Source of the DNA: Candidatus Doudnabacteria bacterium RIFCSPHIGHO2_02_FULL_43_13b
GTDB taxonomy: Bacteria > Patescibacteriota > Doudnabacteria > UBA920 > O2-02-FULL-48-8
Direction of reading: 5' to 3'
Assembly: GCA_001777655.1 (NCBI GenBank)
Contig: MFER01000013.1
Span: forward strand, 68,322 to 132,321
Length of the DNA: 64,000 bases
Notes under the pieces: model-generated
What the model saw: only the letters and a program-made list of their open reading frames with translations
Databases searched by the model: none
Told to the model about the DNA's origin: nothing
Position numbers and translations under genes: made by a program
Part shown: positions 126 through 63,424 of the stretch, piece by piece
Layout of the letters: every line of letters starts with the position of its first letter
Position numbering within the stretch: position 1 is the stretch's first letter

Positions 126-1616
126 ATGTTTCACGGTGAAACATATAAAACTATCAGAAATCTTAAGATTCACGAGGTTTTGTTCTACGTATTTCTGTTG
201 TTTTTGCCACTCCAGACCCGGATTCTCTATAATCCAACCTCGGCGTATATCCAAGATTACTTCAATTACCACTTGGCGTTTTTTGTCTATCTGACTGATC
301 TAATTCTAATCACATGTTTTATTAGTTGGTTCTTGTTTCCAACTAACGCATCTGCGAGCGAAGCGAAGCAGTCTATTTTAAGTTTTAGATTGCTTCGTCG
401 GTCAAATGGCCTCCTCGCAAATGCGAACAACCGATTTTTTTGGCTAATTTTAGCCTTTTTTCTAGTAATTTTAATAGGAATGTTCCCCGTGAAACATCTA
501 GATTTTGGCTTATATCAGGCATTTAAGTGGTTAGAGCTCTGGCTCCTAGTGATTTATATCTGGCAAACGTTTCACAAAAGGTTTCACTTCATAGTTTCAT
601 GTGCAACAATCTTCGTTTCTGGCCTGGGACAGGCCTTTCTAGGTCTATGGCAGTTCCACGTGCAACATGGGCTGGGACTGGGCTGGTTGGGCGAATATAT
701 CGCGCCAATAGGCACCTCTGGCCTGGCGACTATCAATGTGGCTGGGGAGAAACTAATCCGCGCCTATGGAACCATGCCGCATCCCAATGTTTTCGGGGCA
801 TTCCTAGTTTTTGGCTTATTTATGGGCTTTTTCTTGGTTTCACATGGAACCTCAAAAGAAACCCATCCCCGCGAAAGCGGGGATCTAAATAAAGCTTTAT
901 CAAGATCCCCGATTACTTATTTAATACTTGCCTCGGGGATGGTTATCGTTACCCTTGGAATCTTTGTGTCATTCTCTAGGTTAGCCTGGATAGCGGCGGC
1001 AATAGGGTTTTTCGGGTTTGGCCTCTATTATTTACTCAAAAAGGCTTGGAAACCCCTAATTTTATTAGGGTTTATAGCGATTGTTTCAGGTGGAACAATC
1101 CTGTTCTTCTTTGGGAACGACTTCAGTGCCCGAGTTTTTGATGCCAATCAAACGGCTTTAGTGGATCGCTGGTTTTTCGACGACCTCGGGTTAAAAATGA
1201 TGGCCCAACACCCACTGTTAGGAGTAGGAGTAGGCAATTATGTTCCGGCGTTACAGGCCGGGGTGTCGTTAGCCTCCTGGCAATACCAACCGGCTCATAA
1301 TATTTTTATCTTCTTGGGAGCAGAACTGGGCATCATTGGCCTGATAATTTTTCTCGGGCTGGTATGGGAAATTTGCCGGCGCCTAAAAAATATTTTTTCT
1401 GATCCATTACTATTTACTATTTACTCATTACTAATTACTATCCTGCTCATGGGACAGTTCGACCATTATTTTGTTACAATTCAACAGGGGAGACTGATGT
1501 TTTTTACTATCCTTGGATTATTAGCGGCGCTGCCCAATCTTTACGATCAACGGCGCGTCATTCCGGACCACGATCCGGAATCCAGATCTCTAGATTCTGA
1601 ATCAAGTTCAGAATGA
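126..1616 (+). CDS. O-antigen ligase / Wzy-like polytopic membrane protein; true start may be internal
   Basis: Many TM segments and a FSRLAWIAAAIGFFG motif typical of Wzy_C/O-antigen ligase. The ORF carries two in-frame palindromic repeat elements (351..428 and 863..942). Confidence 0.6.
   Translation: MFHGETYKTIRNLKIHEVLFYVFLLFLPLQTRILYNPTSAYIQDYFNYHLAFFVYLTDLILITCFISWFLFPTNASASEAKQSILSFRLLRRSNGLLANANNRFFWLILAFFLVILIGMFPVKHLDFGLYQAFKWLELWLLVIYIWQTFHKRFHFIVSCATIFVSGLGQAFLGLWQFHVQHGLGLGWLGEYIAPIGTSGLATINVAGEKLIRAYGTMPHPNVFGAFLVFGLFMGFFLVSHGTSKETHPRESGDLNKALSRSPITYLILASGMVIVTLGIFVSFSRLAWIAAAIGFFGFGLYYLLKKAWKPLILLGFIAIVSGGTILFFFGNDFSARVFDANQTALVDRWFFDDLGLKMMAQHPLLGVGVGNYVPALQAGVSLASWQYQPAHNIFIFLGAELGIIGLIIFLGLVWEICRRLKNIFSDPLLFTIYSLLITILLMGQFDHYFVTIQQGRLMFFTILGLLAALPNLYDQRRVIPDHDPESRSLDSESSSE
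351..428. repeat. Palindromic repeat family 1 copy (GCGAGCGAAGCGAAGCA...TTGCTTCGTCG...CCTCGCAAATGCG), in frame inside the Wzy-like CDS
   Basis: Nested inverted repeats. The same arms recur at 18445..18521, 26308..26372 and 61926..62002, with short relatives at 9386..9417 and 49090..49107. Confidence 0.7.
863..942. repeat. Palindromic repeat family 2 copy (CCATCCCCG..CGGGGATCTAAATAAAGC..AAGATCCCCG..CGGGGATGG), in frame inside the Wzy-like CDS
   Basis: A near-identical composite element lies at 44917..45011; both share the exact 17-mer GGGGATCTAAATAAAGC. Confidence 0.7.
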
Positions 1617-5033: not shown

Positions 5034-5107
5034 TGGAGCGGGTAGCGGGAATCGAACCCGCGTCATTTGATTGGCAACCAAATGTTCTACCATTGAACCA
5101 TACCCGC
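5034..5107 (-). tRNA. tRNA-Gly (anticodon GCC)
   Basis: The reverse complement folds as GCGGGTA..TTGCCAA..GGGTTCGATTCCCGC..TACCCGC-T-CCA. Confidence 0.85.
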
Positions 5108-5118
5108 TCAAATATTTT

Positions 5119-5403
5119 TGGTGCCGCAGGTCAGAATCGAACTGACTACGCTCGCCTCTTCCAAAGGCTACTTGGACTATATCATCATCCTTTATAAAAA
5201 GGAGTTGGGCGCTGGTGCAGGGTTATTGTTGGGACTCACCTGCTAGTCTCTACACCTTACAGGAAACCTTCAGCCCTTCCTGCCTTGGCTCGGGATTGTC
5301 TTTTGCAAGAGTTCCCCCGAATTCACCCAATTTTTCTCAAGAACCATTACTGGTTCTGGCCCCAAAGATTTAGGGCGACGCTCTACCAATGAGCTACTGC
5401 GGC
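5119..5403 (-). tRNA. tRNA-Phe (anticodon GAA inferred) interrupted by a group I intron between U33 and G34
   Basis: 5' exon GCCGCAGTAGCTCATTGGTAGAGCGTCGCCCT; 3' exon GAAGAGGCGAGCGTAGTCAGTTCGATTCTGACCTGCGGCACCA. The spliced product is a canonical 75-nt cloverleaf with A73. Confidence 0.7.
5162..5371 (-). ncRNA. Group I intron (IC3-like, tRNA-intron type), about 210 nt
   Basis: P1 pairs exon CCCU with the guide sequence GGGG (U-G at the splice site). P10 pairs UCUUU with the 3' exon GAAGA. The intron ends in G. Core motifs CAAUCCCGAGCCAAG, GGUGUAGAGACUAGC and GAUAUAGUCCAAG match cyanobacterial tRNA-Leu introns. Confidence 0.7.
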
Positions 5404-5427: not shown

Positions 5428-5504
5428 TGGTGGACGCTAAAGGATTCGAACCTTTGACCTTCGCAGTGTAAATGCGACGCTCTAACCAGCTGAGCTAAGC
5501 GTCC
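5428..5504 (-). tRNA. tRNA-Val (anticodon TAC)
   Basis: GGACGCTTAGCTCAGCTGGTTAGAGCGTCGCATTTACACTGCGAAGGTCAAAGGTTCGAATCCTTTAGCGTCCACCA. Confidence 0.85.
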
Positions 5505-9368: not shown

Positions 9369-9561
9369 AAAAAATAAAGAGTTTTGTCCCGCTACGCGGG
9401 ATCTCGCGAAGCGAGACAGACTCCAGCCTTACCCCTTGGCTACCAGGCCATAACTAGCATATTATAGTTTTTTTTTCGGAAATAATCTACACCAGACCAA
9501 TTGATCCTTAAGATCTAACAAAAATCCTAGAATTGATTAAGCATAAAAAAACTGCCTATTG

Positions 9562-13451: not shown

Positions 13452-15914
13452 ATGGATATCGGTAAAGTCAATCCAAGATCAATTGAACGTGAGATGGAGG
13501 AGTCATATTTGGATTACGCGATGAGTGTGATCGTGGCTCGGGCCCTGCCGGATGTTCGAGATGGGTTAAAACCCGTCCACCGCCGAATTCTTTATGCCAT
13601 GTCAGAGCTCGGGCTTCGCTCCAACGTAAAATTTCGCAAATCAGCGGCTGTGGTCGGGGAAGTTTTAGCCAAATACCATCCCCATGGGGACGTCGCAGTT
13701 TATGATTCCATGGTCCGCATGGCCCAAGAATTCGCCATGCGTTATCCCTTAATTGACGGGCAAGGAAACTTCGGTTCCATGGACGGCGATGCCCCGGCGG
13801 CCATGCGTTATACGGAAGCGCGCATGATGGCTTTGGCCGAAGAAATTTTGGCCGACTTGGAAAAAGACACGGTGGATTGGATGGATAATTATGATGCCAC
13901 AAAAAAAGAACCGAAAGTGCTGCCGGCCAAAGCTCCCAACCTGCTGCTCAACGGCACTTTAGGCATCGCAGTCGGGATGGCCACTGATATCCCGCCTCAC
14001 AATTTAGGGGAAGTGGTGGATTCCGTGATTAAATTAATTGAAGAACCACAAACTACGACTGATGAACTAATGGAGTTTGTGAAGGGCCCGGATTTTCCAA
14101 CTGGCGGATTTATCTATGATTGGAATACAATCAAACAAGTTTACGCCACCGGCAAAGGCCCCATCGTCATGCGCGGCCGGACCGAGATTGTGGAAGAAAA
14201 AGGCGTCCATAAAATTCTGATTACGGAAATTCCCTATCGAGTCAATAAGGCAACTCTCTTAGAGCAGTTTGCCGAGCTGGTGAAAGATAAAAGAATCGAA
14301 GGGATTAAAGATCTAAGGGATGAGTCGGACAAAGACGGGGTGCGAATCGTGATTGATCTGAAAAAAGAAGGCTTACCGAACAAAATTTTAAATCAATTAT
14401 TTAAATACTCATCTTTGCAAGAAACCTTCCACGTCAACATGCTGGCCTTGGTAGATGGAATAGAACCGCAGGTTTTGAACTTAAAAAATATTTTAGAATA
14501 TTACATTAAACATCGGGCCGAGGTTATCAAGCGGCGCACTGCTTTTGATTTGAACAAAGCGAAAGACCGCGCTCACATTTTAGAAGGATTAAAAAAAGCC
14601 CTGGATCATATCGATGCAGTGATCCAAACAATTAAGAAATCTGATACCACGGAAGAGGCTCATGCAGCCCTGATAACAAAATTCAAATTGTCAGATAAGC
14701 AGTCAACCGCGATTCTGCAAATGCAGCTTCGCGCACTGGCGGGATTGGAGCGTAAAAAAATCGACGATGAATTGAAGGAAAAACGGAAATTGATTGAAGA
14801 ATTGGAAGATTTACTCAAAAGTGAAAAAAAGATTAAAACCGTGGTCAAAACCGAACTGTTGGAATTGAAAGATAAATATAACAATCCTCGCAAAACCACG
14901 TTAGTGAAACAACCGATTGGAGAATTTAAAGCAGAAGATTTAATCCCCGAGCAATCAACCATGGTAATCGTTACCAGGTCAGGATACGTCAAACGTCTGC
15001 CCCCAGATACTTATAAAACCCAGGGCCGCGGCGGCAAGGGGGTAATCGGCATGACTACCAAAGAAGAAGACGTGGTAGAATGGCTGTCGACGACCAATAC
15101 TCACGATGATATTTTATTCTTTACGAACAAAGGGCGGGTTTTCCAAACCAAAGTCTACGAATTACCAGAAGCTTCCCGCACCGCCCGCGGTCAGGCCTTG
15201 GTCAACTTCTTGGAACTGCCGACTGATGAAATGGTTTCGGCCATCTTAACTTTTTCCAAGAAAATCCCGGCCAAATTTCTGATCCTTTCGACCAAAAAAG
15301 GCTTGATTAAAAAAACCGTAATCGAGGAGTTCGCGAAAGTCAGGCGATCGGGTCTGATTGCTATAAAGCTCAAAACCGGTGACGAACTGCGCTACGTCAA
15401 ATATTCTACGGGCAACGACGATGTGATTTTGTCCACGGCAGGCGGGCAAGCGATTCGGTTTGATGAAAAAGACGTCAGATCCATGGGCCGCGCCACTGCC
15501 GGAGTGAAAGGTATGCGATTGAAATCCGCCAGAGGCGGATCCTCCTCCGGAGGAAAAGATGATTACCTGATGAGTATGGATTTGGTATCCAAGAAAAACA
15601 AACTGGAAAATTTGCAACTTTTGATCGTCACGGAAAATGGCTTAGGCAAAAAAACAGATTTGAAATTCTACAAACGGCAACATCGCGGAGGATCGGGTAT
15701 AAAAACTTTGAAAGTTAGCCCGAAAACAGGCAAGATTGTCTCCCTCCACGTAATTGATAAAACCGAGGAACACGATCTGATGGTTATTTCCAAACTCGGA
15801 CAAACTCTTAGGACCCCCATCGGCAAAATTTCAACGCTGGGCCGCGCCACCCAAGGCGTACGAATCATGACCTTGGATAATAAAGACAAAGTGGCTACAA
15901 CCACAATAATTTAG
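13452..15914 (+). CDS. gyrA: DNA gyrase subunit A
   Basis: [16 protein letters not shown], the active-site Tyr region, and GyrA-box beta-pinwheel repeats. Confidence 0.95.
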
Positions 15915-18444: not shown

Positions 18445-18546
18445 TGTCTTTGCGAGCGAAGCGAAGCAATCTCTTTACTTAGGTCGGGATTGCTTCGTCG
18501 CTGTCGCTCCTCGCAAAGACAGAAGGAAAAAGACAGAAGGAAAAAG
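18445..18546. repeat. Palindromic repeat family 1 copy (12-bp perfect outer inverted repeat TGTCTTTGCGAG/CTCGCAAAGACA) followed by a 14-bp tandem GACAGAAGGAAAAA x2
   Basis: Shares the GCGAGCGAAGCGAAGCA and TTGCTTCGTCG arms with the copy at 351..428. The tandem ends at the ruvC ATG. Confidence 0.7.
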
Positions 18547-26300: not shown

Positions 26301-26307
26301 TTCTGAT

Positions 26308-26372
26308 AGATTGCTTCGTCGGCGCCGAGGTTCTAACTATAAAAAAAGCGCCTCCTCGCAAATGCGCTTTTC
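26308..26372. repeat. Palindromic repeat family 1 copy (GATTGCTTCGTCGG..CCTCGCAAATGCG)
   Basis: Same arms as 351..428 and 61926..62002; truncates the ORF6N gene. Confidence 0.65.
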
Positions 26373-38082: not shown

Positions 38083-38225
38083 CCCAGTATATCAACTTCG
38101 ATAAATGGTTTATTGGCTTTTGCATAAAATTAAAGTCTTTATTATAGATTTTTTGCTTAATCTATTATTATTAGTTTGATAATAAAACCATTTAGGGGCA
38201 AAAGCATCGAAGTTGTATTACTGGG
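38083..38225. mobile_element. MITE-like element A, copy 1 (about 143 bp, TIR CCCAGTATATCAACTTCGAT / ATCGAAGTTGTATTACTGGG)
   Basis: Near-identical inverted copy at 48128..48274. Terminal inverted repeats match at 18 of 20 positions. The element starts 1 nt from the tsaE start codon. Confidence 0.65.
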
Positions 38226-38282: not shown

Positions 38283-38423
38283 GCCCGGTAGTAGAAATTT
38301 GATATTTATCCCGCGACTCGTGGGATAAATAAAAAACAACCGCGCGATAAAATTTCTTTGCTGGTTATAATAATCAAAGACAATTAGTAACTAATTTATT
38401 CTTTAATCAAATTTTCACTACCG
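38283..38423. mobile_element. MITE-like element B, copy 1 (TIR CCCGGTAGTAGAAATTTGAT / AAATTTTCACTACCGGG)
   Basis: Second copy at 47962..48057 with the same termini. It abuts the ATG at 38427 as ..CACTACCGGGTATG. Confidence 0.55.
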
Positions 38424-38426
38424 GGT

Positions 38427-39566
38427 ATGGAAATCACAGCTCAAATTACCTCAAAAATTTCACAGGCCGCCACAGTCTTGATTATTGTGGCAGGAGATAG
38501 CGGTGATAGCCTGGCCGCCGGTTTAGCATTGCAAGGATTTCTTAAAAAACTGGAGAAGGAAACCGCTGTTTTATCCTTCACCCCGAAATTGAACAAGCTA
38601 GATTTTTTGCAAGGATTTAGGGAGGCTCGGGAAGAGCTGGATGTGACCAAAAGTTTTGTCATTGACGTCTCAACCAAGCAGACGCAAATCGAGGAACTAA
38701 GTTATAAAAAAGAGGTTGATAAACTCTCGATTTTTATTAAACCTAAAAAAGGCCAATTCGAAAAAAATGACATTAGTTTCCGCAGTTCAAACTTTCCCTT
38801 CGATTTATTAATCATGATCGGGGTTGACTCGCTGGACCGTTTGGGGCAGCTTTATAATGAAAATACGGAATTATTTTTTGAAACCCCGATTTTAAATATC
38901 GATTTTAAGGCTACTAATGAAAATTTTGGGCAATATAATCTAGTGAATTTGACTGCCACTTCCAATTCGGAAATTGTGTTTGATTTAATCAACCACATTG
39001 AGGCTACCTTTATTGATGAAGCGATCGCGACTCAACTGTTAACCGGGATTATTTCCGAAACCGAAAGTTTCCAGCATGTTCGGACTACACCCCAAACTTT
39101 TCTCAAAGCTTCCCAGTTAGTCAGTTTAGGCGCCAACCAACAGGAAATTATCTCAAGGCTTTATAAGACGAAAAGTTTGGGGTTACTAAAGCTATGGGGC
39201 CGGGTTCTTGCTCGTCTGCAGCAGGCGCCAGAAATTTCTTTGGTTTATTCGTCAATTAATCAAACCGATCTAGAACGCTCACAGGCTTCGGAAGAAGACG
39301 TTCAGACTATTATCAAGGAAATGTCGATGCAGTTAGGGTTTGCCAAACTGTTTTTATTTTTTAAAGAAGACCAGTCCAACCAAACCTCTGTTTGGTGCCA
39401 CTCCACTCTGCCGGTTGATTTAAGACAAATTTTCGCCCAGTTTAAGCCCAAACTACTCGCTTACCAGACGACCTATTTTAGTTTGAACCAACCGTTATCT
39501 GAGGCGGAAAAACAAATCGTCTCGTTGCTAAAAAGTGACATTGCCAAATATAAATTGAACATGTAA
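38427..39566 (+). CDS. DHH/DHHA1-like phosphoesterase (NrnA-like), possibly degenerate active site
   Basis: NrnA-like architecture with VAGDSGDSLAAGLAL in place of HxNPDGDAxGS and NHI in place of DHH. Confidence 0.4.
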   Translation: MEITAQITSKISQAATVLIIVAGDSGDSLAAGLALQGFLKKLEKETAVLSFTPKLNKLDFLQGFREAREELDVTKSFVIDVSTKQTQIEELSYKKEVDKLSIFIKPKKGQFEKNDISFRSSNFPFDLLIMIGVDSLDRLGQLYNENTELFFETPILNIDFKATNENFGQYNLVNLTATSNSEIVFDLINHIEATFIDEAIATQLLTGIISETESFQHVRTTPQTFLKASQLVSLGANQQEIISRLYKTKSLGLLKLWGRVLARLQQAPEISLVYSSINQTDLERSQASEEDVQTIIKEMSMQLGFAKLFLFFKEDQSNQTSVWCHSTLPVDLRQIFAQFKPKLLAYQTTYFSLNQPLSEAEKQIVSLLKSDIAKYKLNM

Positions 39567-45959: not shown

Positions 45960-47960
45960 TTACTTGAAACTATGCCGCTTCATCCGTTGTTTTTGGCGGA
46001 TGGCTTGGATTTCATCCCGTAATTTGGCGGCTTGTTCGAAATCAAGATTGCGGGCGGCCAGATCCATCTGATCGCGCAGTTCTTCGATCGCATAAGCAAT
46101 TTCTTGCTTGGTCATTTTGGTCAGATCTCGTTGAGGGGTGAGGGGTGAGGGTTCGGGGGTGAGTTTTTGACCAGCAAGCCGAGATTCGCGAATTGCCTTT
46201 TCTATACCTTTGGGCGTGATGCCATGTTTTTTATTATAATCTTCTTGGATTTTACGGCGACGGAGGACTTCATCCGTGGCCCGCCGCATGGAACCCGTGA
46301 TTTTGTCAGCATACATAATTGCCTTGCCATCTAAATGTCTGGCTGCCCGACCCATGGTTTGGATAAGAGAGGTATCGGAGCGCAAAAATCCTTCCTTATC
46401 AGCATCAAGAATGGCAACCAGTGAAACTTCCGGCAAATCCAAGCCTTCTCGTAAAAGGTTGATCCCCACGACCACATCATAAACACCTATTCGCAAATCG
46501 CGCAAAATTTCCAACCGTTCTAGGGTCTCTACGTCAGAGTGCAGATAATGGACTTTTATCCCATATTCTGTCAGATAATTGGCCAATTCCTCGGCCATGT
46601 TTTTGGTCAAGGTAGTAACCAAGACGCGTTGGTGTTTTTTCACTCGAATTTGGATTTCCTCCATTAAATCATCAATCTGATTTTTCGTCGGCCGAATCTC
46701 GATCTTAGGATCCAACAGGCCGGTTGGTCGGATCAACTGCTCGGCGACTTGTTTTGAGATTTTAAGCTCGCGGTCTTTCACCGGGGTAGCAGAAACAAAA
46801 ATTGTCTGGCCGATTTTTTTCTCAAATTCCTCGAATTTTAAAGGCCGGTTATCGGCAGCAGACGGTAGGCGAAAACCGTAATCAATCAAAGTTTTTTTGC
46901 GGGATTGGTCGCCCAAATACATCCCACCGATTTGCGGCAGTGTCATGTGAGATTCGTCGATAAACAGCAGAAAATCGTCAGGGAAATAATCCAGCAGGGT
47001 AGATGGCGGTTCTCCGGCCTTACGAAAGTCTAGCTGCCGAGAGTAGTTTTCAATCCCTGAGACAAACCCTGTTTCCAGCATCATTTCGATATCGAAATTT
47101 GTTCGCTGCTCAATCCTTTGGGCTTCGAGTTCCTTTCCTTGTTTTTTGAAAAATTTAACCTGATCGGCAAGTTCCTTTCGGATATTGCCAATCGCCGCCA
47201 TTAGCTTTTCTCTCGGTGTGACGAAATGTTTAGCTGGAAAAATAGTATATTCATCCAAGGTCCCGAGATCTTGACCAGTCAGAGGATTGTGCTGGGAAAT
47301 TTTTTCCACCCTATCACCATCAAAATTAAACCGCAAGACCCAATCAGAGGAAGCGGGGATAATTTCGATGACGTCTCCTCTGACGCGGAACGTTCCGCGC
47401 TCTAAATTAATGTCGTTTCGTAAAAACTGCAGATCGGTTAAGCGCCGTAAAAATTTATCTCGCTTGAAAGTCTCACCAATCCTAACTGGAATTGATAATT
47501 CCAAATAATCGTCCGGGGAACCCAAGCCATAGATACACGAAACAGAAGCGACGATCAGGACGTCTTTGCGAGAAAGGAGGCTTTCGGTGGCGGCATTGCG
47601 CAATTTATCAATCTCTTCGTTAATTTCCGTTTCTTTTTCGATATAAGTGTCAGAGCGCGGGATATAGGCCTCCGGTTGATAGTAATCATAATAAGAGACA
47701 AAATAGTGCACAGCGTTATCTGGAAAGAAATTTTGAAACTCTGAGGCTAATTGCGCCGCTAAGGTTTTATTATGAGAAATGATTAAAGTTGGTTTTTGGA
47801 GTTTTTCGATAACGTTGGCCATGGTAAAAGTTTTACCTGAGCCTGTCACCCCCAAAAGCGTTTGGTAGCGGTATTTTTTGGCCAGACCCGCAACTAGTTT
47901 GTCGATGGCATCTGGTTGATCCCCCGCGGGTTTGAAATCGGAATGAATCTTAAACGGCAT
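45960..47960 (-). CDS. uvrB: Excinuclease ABC subunit B
   Basis: [12 protein letters not shown] Walker A, helicase motifs, C-terminal UVR domain. Confidence 0.95.
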
Positions 47961-47961
47961 A

Positions 47962-48057
47962 CCAGGTAGTAGAAATTTGATTAATGCTTAAATTTACTGC
48001 AAGGTGTTATATTAATCTGTTCGCGAAGCGAACAGATATGAAATTTTCACTACCTGG
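47962..48057. mobile_element. MITE-like element B, copy 2
   Basis: CCAGGTAGTAGAAATTTGAT...AAATTTTCACTACCTGG with the internal hairpin CTGTTCGCGAAGCGAACAG. It starts 1 nt from the uvrB start codon. Confidence 0.55.
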
Positions 48058-48127: not shown

Positions 48128-48274
48128 CCCAGTAATACAACTTCGATGCTTTTGCCCCTAAATGGTTTTTGAATTAACCTTCATTAGTTATATGACTAAG
48201 AATACAGTTAATAATAATGGTTTTTTTAGCGCAAAAGCGCACACAAAAACCATTATCGAAGTTGATATACTGGG
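48128..48274. mobile_element. MITE-like element A, copy 2 (inverted relative to copy 1)
   Basis: Its reverse complement aligns along its length with 38083..38225. It ends ..GTTGATATACTGGG directly at the ruvA ATG. Confidence 0.65.
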
Positions 48275-48879: not shown

Positions 48880-49195
48880 ATGAATCATGGATATCAAAAT
48901 TTGATTGTTTGGCAGAAATCAATGTTGGTTGTTAAGGGCGTCTATAAAATCACAGGAGAATTGCCTAAACAAGAACAGTATATTTTAGTTTCACAGATGC
49001 TAAGAGCGGCAATATCTATTCCGTCAAATATTGCTGAGGGATGGTCACGCTAACTGGAATCAAGAGTTTATACGATTTTTTGAAATAGCCTTTGCTTCGC
49101 CTGCGAGCTGGAAACTCAGTTATTGATATGTAAAGATCAATATCAAAAAATAGATTGTAGTTCTGTCGAAGCGATCCTCGTAGAGGTTAAAAAAT
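48880..49195 (+). pseudogene. Four-helix-bundle protein (23S rRNA IVS / Avd-like family) with two frameshifts
   Basis: Frame 1 gives MNHGYQNLIVWQKSMLVVKGVYKITGELPKQEQYILVSQMLRAAISIPSNIAEGWSR then a stop. The family consensus continues in other frames as NQEFIRFFEIAF.. and ELETQLLICKD... Confidence 0.6.
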
Positions 49196-49264
49196 GTTAA
49201 CGAGTCTTATTCAGAACAAAACAAGGGCCCGGTTCTGATTACTGCTTACTATTTACTGACTGCT

Positions 49265-50197
49265 ATGATAAGCGCTCTTACAGAACAAACTTGGGATGCG
49301 AAAGTTGTCGAGCTGGGCGGCTCGATTTTGCAATCATGGAGTTGGGGTGAATTTCAGAAATTTCTAAATCAAAAAATTTACCGTTTTTCTGGTCAGGATT
49401 TTATTTGTTTGGCAGTTGGAATCGAATTGCCACTAGATAAAAAATATATTTATTGTCCCCGCGGCCCAGTTGGCAATCTCGAGTCTGCTTTGAGTGATTT
49501 AAAAAAATTAGCAGAGGACCATTCTATTATTTTTTCACGGCTTGAACCCCCCCAACCGCTGTTATTGCCGAAAGCGATCAAAGATGTTCAGCCTCCGAAC
49601 AATTGGATGTTGTCATTGGAAAAATCCGAAGAAGAATTATTGATCGGGATGAAACCAAAAACCCGCTACAATATCAATTTGGCCCAGCGTAAAGGAGTGT
49701 CGGTGCGGCTTGGGAACCAAGTTGACCTTTTGGATTTTTATAAGTTGATGCTGGAGACGGCGAAGCGCAATCAGTTTAAATTACATCCGCAGAATTATTA
49801 TTTGCAGATGTGGGATCATTTAGCTCCAACTAATTTGCAATTACTCTTGGCTTATTATAAGAATCAATTATTATCAGGAATGCTGTTGTCATGGTTTGGC
49901 GATTCGGCGACTTATCTGCATGGTGGGTCCTCGGTCAGATTGAAAGAGGCAATGGCCCCTTATTTAGTGCATTGGGAGGCGATTAAATTAGCTAAAGAGC
50001 GGGGGTACAAAACTTATGACTTTGGCGGAGTGGCTCCGGGCAATCAAACAGGGCATAGTTGGGCGGGAATCTCGAGGTTTAAGAAGGGTTTTGGCGGCTT
50101 TGAGGTGACCTATCCCGGAGCTTATGACCTAATTTACTCGCCAATTTGGTATAATGTTTATACGCAAGCATGGAGCTTACGAAAAATCTTAAGGTAG
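49265..50197 (+). CDS. FemAB-family peptidoglycan peptide-bridge aminoacyltransferase (FemX-like)
   Basis: APYLVHWEAIKLAKERGYKTYDFGG closely matches the FemAB core. Confidence 0.65.
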   Translation: MISALTEQTWDAKVVELGGSILQSWSWGEFQKFLNQKIYRFSGQDFICLAVGIELPLDKKYIYCPRGPVGNLESALSDLKKLAEDHSIIFSRLEPPQPLLLPKAIKDVQPPNNWMLSLEKSEEELLIGMKPKTRYNINLAQRKGVSVRLGNQVDLLDFYKLMLETAKRNQFKLHPQNYYLQMWDHLAPTNLQLLLAYYKNQLLSGMLLSWFGDSATYLHGGSSVRLKEAMAPYLVHWEAIKLAKERGYKTYDFGGVAPGNQTGHSWAGISRFKKGFGGFEVTYPGAYDLIYSPIWYNVYTQAWSLRKILR

Positions 50198-50270
50198 TAA
50201 ACAGAAAACAGTAAGCAGTAATCAGAATTAGTTCCTGTTTCCTGATTACTATTTACTGCTTACTAAATTT

Positions 50271-59295: not shown

Positions 59296-61521
59296 TTAGT
59301 TTAATTTTATCGGCCATTTTTCGACCAGCAGTAGGTTCTTGTGATTGATTTGCCAGGCGGCTTCGGTAACGAACGGCACGAATGGATGCAGGAGTTTGAG
59401 GCAAGTTTCCAAGACAGTTTTTAACATTAGTTGGGTGGAAGCCTTGGTTTTTGGATTGGCTAGCTGAGCTTTGGATTCTTCGATAATTTTATCAGCGAAG
59501 GTATGCCAAAAGTAATGATAGAGATTTTCTGCCGCATGGGCGAGGTCTTGTTTGTCCAAAAGTTTAGTTGTGCCATTAGTTACTTTGTCTAAATTTTTCA
59601 GGATGACTTTGTGAGCAGGGGCTAATTGAGCTGTTGCGTCCATGCCCTCTGTGTTTTGCATGACAAACCGAGCCGCGTTCCAAATCTTGTTGGCAAAGTT
59701 TCGGTAGCCGCGGACTTTATCTTCTGATAGCGGCAAATCATTGCCTGGCAAGTTGCCGACAACCAAAGCCATCCGCAGAGCGTCGTTGCCATAAATATCG
59801 ATCACGCCCAAAGGATCAATGACATTGCCCTTGGACTTGCTCATTTTTTGGCGATCTTTATCGCGCACCAGGCCATGAAGGTAGACGTTTTCAAACGGCA
59901 CCTGCCCGGTTTTGTAAAGCCCGAACATAATCATCCGCGCCACCCAGAAGAAGAGAATATCCCAACCAGTTTCCATCATTTGGGTCGGGTAAAAAGTCTG
60001 GAAGTTTATACCCCCCCTAGCCCCCCCTATGTTAGGGGGGGAATCTCTCTGTTCTCCTCCTTTCAAGGGGGAGTTAGAGGGGGTATTATCTAATGCCATG
60101 AGTGTGGCATATGGCCACTGACCGGAAGAAAACCAGGTGTCGAAAGTGTCAGGATCCTGGACCCAACCTTCCCCTGGCGATGCTTCTGAAATTTTCAGCT
60201 CATTGTCTTTATACCACACCGGGATCGGAATGCCCCACCAGATTTGGCGAGAAATCGGCCAGTCACGGATGTTTTTCATCCAATGCATTAGCACTTTTTC
60301 AAATTTTATTGGATTTATTTTAACTTTTTTATTTTTTACAGCATTTACGACCAAATCACGCAGTGAAATTTCGAATTTTGAATTTCGAATTTTGAATTTT
60401 TTTGTCATTGCCACATACCACTGGGGGATGATCAGGGGTTCCAGGACATTCTTACACTTGTAGCATAGTGACACGTTGTGCTTGTAAGTTTCATCGATTT
60501 TTTCCAGCAGTCCCAGCTTCTGCAGATCTTCGACAACTACCTTGCGTGCTTCGGCGACCTTCAGTCCGTGATATTTCGTGTTGGGCAAGTCCATCTTACC
60601 TCGCTTATCAATAACCTGTTTGGGCCCTGGGATTTCATCTTTTCCGCCGGGGACGGATCCGCCTTTGGCGGAATGTTTCTGCCAGATTTCGAAATCTGCG
60701 GCATCATGCGCCGGTGTTACCTTGACTACCCCGGTGCCGAAATCTTTATCTACTAGTTCATCCGCAATCACTTTGATTTTAAATTTGCCCAAAAGTCCTT
60801 CAGCCTCCAGTTCTTGGCCAATGTATTTTTTATATCTGGTATCTTTCGGATTGACTGCCAAGGCCGTGTCGCCAAATTTGGTTTCCGGCCGCACTGTCGC
60901 CAAAGTCAGCGGGCCGTATTTGATGTAATAAAGCGGATCGGTTCGCTCTTCGTGCTCGGTTTCGAGGTCAGCTAGGCCGGTTTGGTGTTTGACACACCAG
61001 TTGCAGATGCGGTTGCCGCGGTAAATCAGACCGTCGCGGTACATTTGCTCAAATGTTTCGTAAACGATTTGGATAATCCGCGGATCCAGGGTAAACATAT
61101 TGCGCGACCAGTCAGTCGAAGCGCCGAGGCGGCGAATGCCGTCTTCGGTTTGCTGTTTATAGTCCTGCACGAAATCCCAGACTTCTTTATAAAATTCCTC
61201 CCGCGTCATCTGAAAGCGTGACCGGCCTTCTTTTTCCAGTTTTTTCTCAAACACGACTTGGGTTTCGAACCCGGCATGATCCGTGCCGGGTAGCCAAAGG
61301 GTTTTTCGGCCGCGCATGCGTTCGAAGCGGATCATGATATCTTGCAGAGTAAAGCCTAATGCGTGGCCGACATGGACTTGGCCGTTGGCATTAGAAGGCG
61401 GCATGATGATCGTATATGGCTTGCCCGACAGATTATCGGGATTAAAAAAACCTGACTCTTCCCAGAGTTTGTAAATCTTGGACTCTTTGGATTGGTCATA
61501 GGTTGTGGGGATGTCGCGCAT
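59296..61521 (-). CDS. valS: Valine--tRNA ligase (short form) carrying two in-frame repeat insertions
   Basis: HVGHALG (HIGH) and KMSKSKGN motifs, editing domain. Insertions lie at 60009..60090 (G/C-homopolymer palindrome) and 60361..60400 (tandem). Confidence 0.85.
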   Translation of the reverse strand: MRDIPTTYDQSKESKIYKLWEESGFFNPDNLSGKPYTIIMPPSNANGQVHVGHALGFTLQDIMIRFERMRGRKTLWLPGTDHAGFETQVVFEKKLEKEGRSRFQMTREEFYKEVWDFVQDYKQQTEDGIRRLGASTDWSRNMFTLDPRIIQIVYETFEQMYRDGLIYRGNRICNWCVKHQTGLADLETEHEERTDPLYYIKYGPLTLATVRPETKFGDTALAVNPKDTRYKKYIGQELEAEGLLGKFKIKVIADELVDKDFGTGVVKVTPAHDAADFEIWQKHSAKGGSVPGGKDEIPGPKQVIDKRGKMDLPNTKYHGLKVAEARKVVVEDLQKLGLLEKIDETYKHNVSLCYKCKNVLEPLIIPQWYVAMTKKFKIRNSKFEISLRDLVVNAVKNKKVKINPIKFEKVLMHWMKNIRDWPISRQIWWGIPIPVWYKDNELKISEASPGEGWVQDPDTFDTWFSSGQWPYATLMALDNTPSNSPLKGGEQRDSPPNIGGARGGINFQTFYPTQMMETGWDILFFWVARMIMFGLYKTGQVPFENVYLHGLVRDKDRQKMSKSKGNVIDPLGVIDIYGNDALRMALVVGNLPGNDLPLSEDKVRGYRNFANKIWNAARFVMQNTEGMDATAQLAPAHKVILKNLDKVTNGTTKLLDKQDLAHAAENLYHYFWHTFADKIIEESKAQLANPKTKASTQLMLKTVLETCLKLLHPFVPFVTEAAWQINHKNLLLVEKWPIKLN
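60009..60090. repeat. G/C-homopolymer palindrome CCCCCCCTAGCCCCCCCTATGTTAGGGGGGGAA..GGGGGAGTTAGAGGGGG in frame within valS
   Basis: Encodes the low-complexity segment ..NSPLKGGEQRDSPPNIGGARGGINF.. inside ValS. Confidence 0.6.
60361..60400. repeat. Tandem repeat ATTTCGAATTTTGA x2 in frame within valS (encodes KFKIRNSKFEIS)
   Basis: A related tandem AAATTCAAAATCC sits in tsaD at 63026..63060, both next to CGCGAAC/GTTCGCG-type hairpins. Confidence 0.55.
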
Positions 61522-61558
61522 AGTAATAAGAAAAAAGCGGCTCGTCGGCCGCTAGTGG

Positions 61559-61801
61559 TTATTTTTGCATTCCGACTTTCTTTTCGAGTAATTCTACCCG
61601 TCGCTGTAATTCGACAAGCTCAAACCGATAAGCGACATTGTCGAGCTTAAGTTTAATTTCTTCTTGGCCTTCTTTAAGGTTGTTCAATCTTTTCTCAACC
61701 CCTCCAAAGCCTGTTTGGACCATTACAGCTAAGTCATCAATTGTAGTGCCTGATTTGTTACTCATAAAAATAATTATACTCCCTATTGACAAATTCGTCA
61801 A
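61559..61801 (-). CDS. Small hypothetical coiled-coil protein (80 aa)
   Basis: ORF with a C-terminal heptad-like region (ELVELQRRVELLEKKV). Confidence 0.35.
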   Translation of the reverse strand: MTNLSIGSIIIFMSNKSGTTIDDLAVMVQTGFGGVEKRLNNLKEGQEEIKLKLDNVAYRFELVELQRRVELLEKKVGMQK

Positions 61802-61814
61802 AAAGGAGTATAGT
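61786..61814 (+). promoter_or_regulatory. Sigma70-like promoter (TTGACA, 17-nt spacer, TATAGT) with a palindromic -35 region TTGACAAATTCGTCAA
   Basis: Consensus hexamers at ideal spacing, reading towards the RT fragment; the -35 element sits inside a 16-bp palindrome. Confidence 0.5.
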
Positions 61815-61845
61815 ATTAAACTGATAATTTGACCATCAGATACTT

Positions 61846-62430
61846 TTGAATATTTTCAAGCAATATATCCCAGATCAAGATAATATTTTATGGTTGTTGG
61901 AGGAGATAATTGAGAGCTTTGGATTAGATTGCTTCGTCGCCCCGCCATGGCGGGACTTCTCGCAAATGCGTAAAGATGCTTCTGCGAGGAGCGAAGCGAC
62001 GTGGCAGTCTAAAAAAGGCCTGCCCTTAGGCAACCTCACCTCCCAGCTCTTTATCAATCTCTATATGAATGAATTTGATCAATTCGTGAAGCACAAACTG
62101 AAACTTAAATACTATATCAGATACGCCGACGATTTTGTGTTCTTATCCGATACTAAGAATGACCTTACTGCAATACTGTCCCGTATTGCAGTATACTTGA
62201 ACGATGGGCTAAAACTATCGCTTCACCCTAACAAAATTATCCTCAAAACCTTTTCGTCTGGCCTTGATTTCTTAGGCTGGGTGAATTTCCCGCAGCATCG
62301 AGTCTTAAGAGCCGCGACGAAGCGGCGGATGATGAAAAAAGTCAATGAGAAAAACATATCGTCATATTTGGGGCTTCTAAAACATGGAAATACTCGTAAA
62401 ATTTCTACTTCAATTCCAAATTTGGTTTAG
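61846..62430 (+). CDS. Reverse transcriptase, DGR-type signature, N-terminally truncated (fingers motifs 1-3 absent), TTG start
   Basis: GLPLGNLTSQLFINLYMNEFDQFV has the [ILV]GxxxSQ motif diagnostic of DGR RTs, and YIRYADDFVFL is the YxDD catalytic motif. The ORF is only 194 aa, with a stop 21 nt upstream in frame. Confidence 0.65.
   Translation: MNIFKQYIPDQDNILWLLEEIIESFGLDCFVAPPWRDFSQMRKDASARSEATWQSKKGLPLGNLTSQLFINLYMNEFDQFVKHKLKLKYYIRYADDFVFLSDTKNDLTAILSRIAVYLNDGLKLSLHPNKIILKTFSSGLDFLGWVNFPQHRVLRAATKRRMMKKVNEKNISSYLGLLKHGNTRKISTSIPNLV
61926..62002. repeat. Palindromic repeat family 1 copy inside the RT ORF (GATTGCTTCGTCGCC..CTTCTCGCAAATGCG..CTGCGAGGAGCGAAGCGACG)
   Basis: Same arms as the other family 1 copies; translates in frame as LDCFVAPPWRDFSQMRKDASARSEAT between RT motif A remnants and motif B'. 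Confidence 0.65.
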
Positions 62431-63424
62431 CGGAGAAGGTTTTCACAAACTTTGCTTTGTGATTTTTTATGCGATAATAAGCCGCGAGGCCGATCATGGC
62501 TGCGTTGTCAGTGCAGTACTCAAGCTTAGGAATAGAAGCTTTTAGCTTATAGCTTTTAGCTAACAGTCCGAAGCGCTTGCGAAGTAATTTATTCGCAGCA
62601 ACACCGCCGCCGAGCATGATAGTTTTTGGCTTGTAACGGATGATGGCCTTTTCAAGCTTAGCAATCAGAACATCAACAATGGCTTGTTGCACGGAAGCAG
62701 CGATATCAGGTTTTAGGTTATAGGTTATAGGTGATAGTTCCTGAAGCTTATAAAGCACGGCGGTTTTCAGGCCGGAAAAACTGAATTCGAAATTTTTCGA
62801 GTTGATCATAGGCCGAGGAAAATCAAAGGCTTGCGGATTTCCTCGTTCAGCCAGTTTGCTTAAGTGTGGTCCCCCAGGATATGGCAAGCCGAGCATCTTT
62901 GCGGTTTTGTCGAATGCTTCCCCCGCGGCGTCGTCCAAAGTTTCCCCCAAGATGCGATACTGGCCATGTCCGCGCATGAGGACCAACAGCGTATGCCCAC
63001 CGGAGACAATCAATATTATCGCCGGGAATTTTGGATTTTGAATTTTGGATTTTGAATTTTCGCGAACGAAGTTCGCGTAGATATGGGCCTCCAAATGATT
63101 GACTGGCAGCACGGGTTTATTCAGAGCCAGGCCCAAAGCCTTGGCCGTATCAACGCCGACCATTAGTGAGGTCGCCAACCCCGGACCTTCGGTCACTGCG
63201 ATATAGTCGATTTGTTTCAGTGTCGTTTTCGCCTGTTTCAACGCTAAATCAATCGTCGGGATGATGGCCGTAATATGCTCCCGGGCCGCCACTTCGGGCA
63301 CGACACCACCATACTTTTTGTGCAGACTTGCTTGAGAGGCGATAATATTGGATTTTATCTGACCATTAATAATAACCGCGGCCGCGGTTTCATCACAACT
63401 AGTTTCGATGGCGAGGATCCTCAT
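62405..63424 (-). CDS. tsaD: tRNA N6-adenosine threonylcarbamoyltransferase TsaD
   Basis: MRILAIETSCDETAAAV and conserved His/metal motifs. Contains an in-frame tandem-repeat/hairpin insertion at 63026..63080. Confidence 0.85.
   Translation of the reverse strand: MRILAIETSCDETAAAVIINGQIKSNIIASQASLHKKYGGVVPEVAAREHITAIIPTIDLALKQAKTTLKQIDYIAVTEGPGLATSLMVGVDTAKALGLALNKPVLPVNHLEAHIYANFVRENSKSKIQNPKFPAIILIVSGGHTLLVLMRGHGQYRILGETLDDAAGEAFDKTAKMLGLPYPGGPHLSKLAERGNPQAFDFPRPMINSKNFEFSFSGLKTAVLYKLQELSPITYNLKPDIAASVQQAIVDVLIAKLEKAIIRYKPKTIMLGGGVAANKLLRKRFGLLAKSYKLKASIPKLEYCTDNAAMIGLAAYYRIKNHKAKFVKTFSAKPNLELK
63026..63080. repeat. Tandem AATTTTGGATTTTG x2.5 plus hairpin CGCGAACGAAGTTCGCG in frame within tsaD
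   Basis: Encodes ..ANFVRENSKSKIQNPKFPA..; related to the valS tandem. Confidence 0.55.

Follow-up and report, generated by a model that had tools for sequence, protein, structure and literature searches.

The question raised by the locus described here is how part of a reverse transcriptase (RT) gene comes to lie between the housekeeping genes valS and tsaD of Candidatus Doudnabacteria bacterium RIFCSPHIGHO2_02_FULL_43_13b, and whether it still does anything there. The stretch that we analysed, referred to below as the window, comprises 64,000 nt of this genome (contig MFER01000013.1, positions 68,322-132,321, forward strand), and coordinates are those of the window unless a related locus is named. 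A preliminary description of this DNA had taken a 194-aa open reading frame (ORF) for the N-terminally truncated RT of a diversity-generating retroelement (DGR), either decaying or split in an unconventional way. Our analysis bears out the first of these possibilities: the ORF is very probably a non-functional, 5'-truncated relic of a chromosomal Patescibacterial DGR RT whose partners have been lost. A truncated RT of the DGR clade is present, and neither a template repeat and variable repeat (TR/VR) pair, nor a target gene, nor the Avd gene typical of the clade accompanies it within 72.4 kb, that is, within the window and the 8.4 kb of further contig over which all searches for missing parts were made.

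What remains of the gene

The remnant comprises RT motifs 4-7 and the thumb, preceded by the segment that links motif 3 to motif 4. Both LPLGNLTSQLFINLYMNEFDQFV and YIRYADDFVFL are found in the ORF, which thus has the SQ-type motif 4 and the YADD motif 5 that had been read in it (Table 1); LGNLTSQ, the core of motif 4, is invariant in the family alignment and conforms to the (I/V/L)GxxxSQ pattern published as a signature of the DGR RT clade (PMC3521204). The N-terminal truncation, with the loss of motifs 1-3, is equally clear. Only the C-terminal part of Pfam RVT_1 is covered (model positions 111-203 of 205, E 2.6e-12), and the start of the ORF aligns with residue ~152-157 of homologues, from where the match reaches their C-terminus. 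Protein homology to RTs begins slightly 5' of the TTG start codon, at 61828/61831 (codons FDHQIL), right behind an in-frame TAA upstream of which tblastn detected RT homology in no frame. The aspartate of motif A, part of LKCD in homologues and D138 of bRT (the DGR enzyme of a Bordetella phage), is wholly absent: the segment 'YIPDQDNILWLLEEII', previously labelled a motif A remnant, is the helix between motifs 3 and 4, and no part of motif A survives.

The exact protein is present in public databases as OGE82484.1 and OGE94570.1, both from Candidatus Doudnabacteria of the Rifle aquifer, where it is labelled hypothetical or 'reverse transcriptase domain-containing'. Thousands of relatives turned up among the 5.8 billion proteins searched; the best, besides the protein itself, are 50-61% identical, and no homologue of 61-100% identity was found. 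Complete relatives are ~300-340 aa long and come mostly from Patescibacteria.

Assignment to the DGR clade

Several comparisons point to the same RT class. In PHROGs, residues 1-190 match phrog_1423 'Reverse transcriptase' with 150.8 bits. The best match by sequence among solved structures is bRT (8ub7, E 2e-16, 63 bits), ahead of the best group II intron RT (E 2e-8). An AlphaFold model of the remnant, with pLDDT values of 85-94 in the palm core, gave bRT entries as all of its five top Foldseek matches, with group II intron RTs ranking next.

The deciding evidence is the genomic context of the relatives. Eighty genome loci were examined, the closest relatives among the matches listed, with 49-68% identity over the retained part of the RT; the source genome of the window is not among them. 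In 63 of them there is a 95-143-nt repeat pair mismatched almost solely at adenines of the RT-proximal copy, the TR. The TR begins ~0.9-1.0 kb upstream of the matched part of the RT and the VR lies ~0.4-0.55 kb further upstream; most of the loci that have no TR/VR pair stop short upstream of the RT. The Avd gene of one locus (L004) is matched in 73 of the 80 loci and, in the loci listed, is a minus-strand gene immediately 5' of the RT. The fragment belongs to the DGR RT clade, and the identity first proposed for it holds on account of its SQ motif, of bRT being its best match in both sequence and fold, and of the TR/VR and bAvd neighbourhood of its relatives. L004 was also considered as an orthologous intact version of the locus, as it has a valS gene ~1.6 kb from a complete DGR, but identity of this valS is only 48% and no tsaD is present, and we ascribe the proximity of valS to coincidence.

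In intact related DGRs, a run of 8-11 G residues is found ~10-30 nt 5' of the RT start codon, in the short avd-RT intergenic region (L003, L004, L008, L009, L010, L021, L029, L035, L037 and L054, at ~9490-9530, and likewise L027 and L038); two related loci have (GT)n in its place. Most intact loci have this run ahead of the RT; the window remnant has none. It could serve as a ribosome-binding element, belong to the DGR RNA or act as a switch prone to slippage.

Decayed RT genes are also found among the top matches: L090 and L091 are frameshifted, L092 has an in-frame stop and L093 a 5' deletion, and unlike the window these four loci retain Avd and TR/VR. L093 (1678-2295), from another metagenome, holds a second, independent 5'-truncated DGR RT of 201 aa that starts near family residue 142-150; bAvd still lies next to it, as does a TR/VR pair in which adenines account for 20 of the 27 mismatches, and an insert is present at the same loop as in the window remnant (see below). 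Truncated DGR RTs have been reported before by Schillinger et al. 2012 (PMC3521204). Since decayed copies are easy to find and truncated ones have already been published, loss of a DGR RT is an ordinary event.

The rest of the cassette is missing

Complete DGR RTs have motifs 1-7 and a thumb in ~300-500 aa (PMC5758913). The 194 aa of the remnant hold motifs 4-7 and the thumb only, and motifs 1-3 occur in no frame of the 72.4 kb searched. When residues 1-165 of eight full-length homologues were used as tblastn queries against both strands, the N-terminal half of the RT was absent: the search gave only a 14-residue overlap at 61831-61872 and short chance segments (best E 0.02-0.09). Filtered self-BLAST of the same 72.4 kb yielded no adenine-biased TR/VR pair, none of the DNA resembled any of 65 TRs of relatives, no tblastn match at E<=0.01 was obtained with 65 target proteins of related loci, and the Avd of the clade had no match (best E 2.0). 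The earlier observation that no TR/VR pair or target gene is adjacent to the RT therefore extends to the whole of the 72.4 kb. The space in which the 5' half of the RT, avd and the TR would lie is taken up by valS and by an ORF of 68 aa.

The best repeat in the TR/VR search was an inverted pair of ~150 nt and 79% identity (38083-38225 and 48128-48274), rejected as TR/VR because its mismatches fall at all four bases. These repeats, together with a further pair at 38393-38429 and 47958-47994, were noted in their own right; the former occupy two intergenic regions that bound a segment of ~10 kb.

What the missing half would have contributed can be read from bRT, in which an N-terminal extension binds Avd, a fingertips loop (R74, F66, I76) touches the template and the deoxynucleoside triphosphate, D138 is one of the three catalytic aspartates, and the thumb and palm contact the spacer RNA (bioRxiv 10.1101/2023.10.23.563531). 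Because the Avd-binding extension, the fingers and fingertips and the motif-A aspartate all belong to the lost part, the fragment cannot be active as a polymerase.

The locus and its promoters

In the window, the junction between tsaD and valS measures 883 bp (61522-62404) and holds the 68-aa ORF and the RT remnant, the latter overlapping the convergent tsaD gene by 26 nt. The comparison with orthologous loci that had been suggested earlier was carried out with tsaD as a probe: two relatives, whose tsaD genes are 75% and 69% identical, share the gene order terC-tsaD-valS, with neither an RT nor the 68-aa ORF between tsaD and valS. The two genes are 190 bp apart in L083 (9020-9212). In L084 (9107-11398) the junction is 2.3 kb long and contains two unrelated genes, a GGDEF-like ORF, read from the sequence, and a possible pyridoxal phosphate-dependent enzyme, and in L087 (905-1513) it is ~600 bp long. 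As the junctions of these related Doudnabacteria differ, and those of L083 and L084 contain no RT, the tsaD-valS gap is variable and the RT fragment specific to the lineage of the window.

The strong promoter with a palindromic -35 box that had been noticed in front of the ORF is indeed present (Table 1). It matches the sigma-70 consensus at 11 of 12 positions, and its -35 box overlaps, as a palindrome, that of a divergent promoter of equal score which would serve the 68-aa ORF and valS and is not part of the retroelement. The window has eight promoter sites of at least 11/12, against 1.3 expected from Markov shuffles, and several of the others lie just upstream of ORFs; this over-representation and placement make it probable that the plus-strand promoter is active. 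A consensus bidirectional promoter thus probably still drives transcription of the remnant. With a convergent overlap of 26 nt and no terminator-like site on the plus strand up to 62600, such a transcript would be predicted to continue, as antisense RNA, into the 3' end of tsaD.

Table 1. Features of the tsaD-valS junction and the pseudogene at 48880, with window coordinates.
Feature	Position	Strand	Remarks
DGR-clade RT gene remnant	61828..62430	+	Homology to residues ~152-325 of ~325-aa relatives
Annotated ORF of the RT remnant	61846..62430	+	194 aa, TTG start, stop TAG 62428-62430
In-frame TAA, 5' breakpoint	61825..61827	+	21 nt upstream of TTG; read from sequence
RT motif 4, LGNLTSQ	62026..62046	+	ORF residues 61-67; (I/V/L)GxxxSQ signature of DGR RTs
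RT motif 5, YADD	62122..62133	+	Two aspartates equivalent to D215/D216 of bRT
Palindromic insert, DCFVAPPWRDFSQMRKDASARSEATWQ	61927..62007	+	~27 codons / 81 nt; in frame, in the loop between 'IIESF' and 'GLPLGN'
Sigma-70-like promoter, TTGACA-17-TATAGT	61786..61814	+	11/12 positions; reads into the remnant
Divergent promoter, TTGACG-17-TATAAT	61801-61773	-	11/12; for the 68-aa ORF and valS; not part of the retroelement
68-aa coiled-coil-like ORF	61559..61765	-	No Pfam, family or Avd match; neighbour
Frameshifted four-helix-bundle pseudogene	48880..49230	+	PF05635, 70-89 bits; two frameshifts

A model for the origin of the remnant

The usual layout of a Patescibacterial DGR comprises, in this order, a target gene with its VR, the TR, avd on the opposite strand and the RT; it may correspond to architecture B3 of Wu et al. 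We propose that such a cassette, or a piece of one, formerly occupied the variable tsaD-valS gap, and that a deletion or rearrangement with its breakpoint at 61825-61830 would have taken the target gene, the TR and avd, along with some 150 codons from the start of the RT gene. What is left encodes the thumb and the half of the palm that holds motifs 4-7, with no nearby template or target on which to act. The intact frame and the retention of all highly conserved residues are, in our interpretation, better explained by a recent loss than by selective retention.

This has a consequence for annotation: the 'hypothetical protein' OGE82484.1 should be renamed a DGR RT pseudogene, and no protein diversification can be inferred at this locus. 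It also provides one datable example of the loss of a DGR in a streamlined genome of the candidate phyla radiation (CPR), at a junction that varies between close relatives.

Alternative explanations

That the fragment derives from another class of RT (group II intron maturase, retron or defence-associated RT, for example) is suggested by the profile search that had been recommended to settle this point, in which the best NCBIfam match was TIGR04416, group II intron RT/maturase (E 1.7e-17), and by the many weak, generic RT matches in PADLOC (all <=65 bits). All of these scores are far under the curated cut-offs (63.6 bits against 300 for TIGR04416, 41.5 against 235 for retron St85, 45.8 against 390 for Drt2 and 44 against 200 for Drt3a), and the full-length relatives P0004 (60% identical to the remnant) and P0019 have the same sub-threshold top match in NCBIfam. 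As there is no DGR RT model among the NCBIfam matches and the relatives score likewise, a group II model does top the list, but this is uninformative and no evidence against a DGR. Rfam detected no group II intron or other RNA family at 61500-62500 (its sole match there is a chance FMN hit, E 0.97) and no intron nearby that reached the gathering score, motif 4 reads SQ and not SP, bRT ranks first in both the sequence and the fold comparison, and the genome loci of the family have TR/VR pairs and bAvd, all of which leave an origin in another RT class extremely unlikely. We give no more credence to the possibility that a chimeric join near 61825 mimics a truncation, even though the source is metagenome-assembled and the junction lies beside palindromic sequence. 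Twelve contigs have the same protein with the same neighbours, and the junction with its flanks recurs in independent samples: NCBI (two genome records), JGI Ga0209542 and an ENA contig with a k141 name. The ENA and JGI contigs do not differ from each other at any base along 20.6 kb, nor does either differ from the window in the 12.2 kb shared with it, so that misassembly can be set aside, and the valS and tsaD flanks are syntenic in relatives. Given this base-for-base identity, all copies stem from one clonal population; the protein cluster at 90% identity likewise contains start-codon variants only.

Part of what weighs against a dead relic concerns its state of preservation and its promoter. 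Its 194 codons are open, with neither a frameshift nor a stop, and it therefore shows no internal decay; all 57 columns that are at least 95% conserved across 74 full-length homologues are kept, where the homologues themselves keep 54-57; and the plus-strand promoter match reading into it is as good as any in the window. An open frame and a promoter are also compatible with continued expression and maintenance of the protein, and selection (the dN/dS ratio) is not measurable because the copies from three sources are base-identical. The truncated palm-thumb protein might, for instance, have been kept as a regulator or decoy that binds a DGR RNA or an RT-Avd complex made elsewhere, or for some other nucleic-acid binding, as the contacts of the bRT thumb and palm with spacer RNA would allow, and the truncated RT of L093, beside its bAvd and TR/VR, starts within ~10 residues of the same point. 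A new role of this kind is nevertheless distinctly unlikely: no Shine-Dalgarno-like sequence precedes the TTG, the Avd-binding extension is lost, the nearest relatives have no remnant at the locus, and conservation of the truncated form was not seen in the 5.8 billion proteins, where homologues of 61-100% identity are lacking. A natural short isoform arising from a common truncation point was considered and rejected, as the N-termini of short ORFs in the family scatter over residues 81-165, a spread explained by frameshifts, in-frame stops, contig ends and the choice of start codon by gene callers. The other way to spare the remnant from the status of a relic would be a split DGR: the genes for the N-terminal RT half, the target and Avd, along with the TR, would lie at other places in the genome, and the RT would be put together in trans from its two halves. 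The searches covered 72.4 kb of the genome, which leaves room for an intact DGR elsewhere, and a four-helix-bundle pseudogene lies 12.6 kb away. Against this stand the absence of an N-terminal half, a TR, a target and a clade-type Avd from both strands of that 72.4 kb, the position of the break inside the palm just past motif 3, at no domain boundary, and the nature of the gene at 48880, which is frameshifted and of PF05635 type rather than the bAvd of the clade. No split RT occurs in the related loci examined, where a frameshift, an in-frame stop or a deletion accounts for the short RTs. With no N-terminal half in any frame of the 72.4 kb, the unconventional split arrangement envisaged earlier finds no support, and we consider it very unlikely. 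A 5'-truncated relic of a DGR RT remains by far the most probable identity of the gene.

The palindromic insert and the loop before motif 4

The palindromic repeat that had been noted within the ORF is present and in frame, and belongs to a family with four copies in the 64 kb (GATTGCTTCGTCG...CTCCTCGCAAATGCG and complement), at 353-425, 18451-18517, 26307-26366 and 61927-62007; the 13-mer GATTGCTTCGTCG itself has exactly four occurrences in the window (388, 18488, 26309 and 61927). The copy at 353-425 is also in frame, within a membrane-protein ORF (126..1616) where it reads ...NASASEAKQSILSFRLLRRSNGLLANA.... In the RT remnant, the insert has a GC content of 58%, against 38% in the remaining ORF, a predicted folding energy of -49.8 kcal/mol (z = -6.0), and pLDDT values of 51-60 in the model. 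It brings the number of residues between 'SF' and 'GLPLGN' to 32, versus mostly 6-7 in homologues. Its TA/TTA flanks are ambiguous as a target-site duplication.

The loop into which it is inserted is a recurrent site of such additions. An extra 12-45 residues occur at this same loop in 13-16 of the 74 full-length homologues compared and in 24 of the 79 RT genes from related genome loci, or ~30% (for example L025:10073-10207, L037:10070-10147, L058:10070-10141 and L074:10067-10123), and elsewhere inside the 331-column core of the alignment there is no insert of more than 2 residues. Most of the 20 inserts that were folded form stable hairpins, the sequence of which differs from genome to genome. 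As ~30% of related RT genes have hairpin inserts at this position, and such inserts are common there in genes whose frame is open across them, the insert is no mark of decay, and the hint in the earlier description that it belongs to the decay is not supported. Only 1 of 15 inserts of other RT genes has a second copy within its own ~20-kb locus; since these inserts are mostly single-copy in their loci, an explanation by a simple mobile repeat of the miniature inverted-repeat transposable element (MITE) kind is unestablished for them. Some inserts were seen to share short hairpin modules in a different order (IYAMAEM and PIGKTYGV in L014, L071, L022 and L047).

One way to account for this recurrence would be that the loop is, beyond mere tolerance, a specific site for in-frame hairpins, either as a functional nucleic-acid element or through targeted insertion, and the promoter-driven window fragment might also be retained and expressed; we regard this as unlikely. 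The loop is a candidate permissive site for the engineering of DGR RTs, and the question that it raises is why hairpins accumulate there.

Other repeats were found in the neighbouring housekeeping genes. Repeats of the AATTTYGAATTTTGAATTT type lie within valS at 60353-60400 (KFKIRNSKFEIS) and within tsaD at 63027-63060 (SKSKIQNPKF), and the tsaD gene of L084 has a different insert of ~30 residues at the loop corresponding to the window tsaD repeat. Further GC-rich palindromes are located at 15525-15562 and 60635-60672.

Other features of the window

The preliminary description had also pointed to an Avd-family pseudogene 12.6 kb from the RT. A frameshifted four-helix-bundle gene is indeed found there; its presumed link to the RT remnant is not borne out. 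Its bAvd (PF22296) scores of 14.2-14.7 bits fall short of the cut-off of 40, and none of the 80 DGR loci contains a match to it, whereas the real Avd of the clade scores higher on bAvd than on PF05635. The pseudogene is bordered by (TACT/TTAC)-rich repeats (49233-49272 and 50188-50265).

At the other end of the window, Rfam reports a group I intron match on the minus strand at 5152-5381 (66.7 bits, gathering score 50), located between tRNA-Gly (5034-5107) and tRNA-Val (5428-5504), which may represent an intron-bearing tRNA gene that was not called by ARAGORN.

Comparison with known systems

In-frame insertion into protein-coding genes is a feature of the Rickettsia palindromic elements and of other MITE-like repeats. 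Compared by its features, not by its sequence, the insert in the window resembles the Rickettsia elements in being palindromic, more GC-rich than its host gene and multi-copy, and in that the repeat lies in frame within coding sequence at least twice (the RT remnant and ORF 126..1616). It differs from these and other MITE-like repeats in having no clear target-site duplication or known transposase, and the loop inserts of other genomes, mostly single-copy within their ~20-kb loci, depart further from multi-copy repeats of the Rickettsia type. The pseudogene at 48880, for its part, resembles (89 bits) the PF05635 '23S rRNA-intervening sequence protein' family, whose superfamily includes Avd; its sub-threshold bAvd score and the absence of a match in any DGR locus set it apart from the Avd type of this RT clade.

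The RT remnant itself is closest to the DGR RTs of Patescibacteria (CPR), with which it shares 49-68% identity, all 57 conserved residues of the C-terminal half, the SQ and YADD motifs, the thumb, and the loop that so often carries hairpin inserts. Unlike them, it has neither residues 1 to ~150, nor a TR, a VR or target, a minus-strand bAvd or a poly-G tract. Its residues 57-166 align with residues 177-284 of bRT of Bordetella phage BPP-1 (8ub7), and the equivalents of bRT I181, G182, Q187, D215 and D216 are kept; identity in the fold alignments is 28-34%, and the equivalents of the Avd-binding extension, the R74 loop and D138 are gone. Among published cases, those of Schillinger et al. 2012 (PMC3521204) are the nearest parallel, being RTs with SQ and YxDD motifs that were shortened by mutation and have no associated TR/VR. 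The window remnant differs from these in that the 5' deletion removed the rest of the cassette too, and in that it lies between housekeeping genes. The novelty of the locus is accordingly low: it is a further case of a known type of decay, and its sole unusual point is the loop at which hairpin inserts recur across the DGR RTs of this clade.

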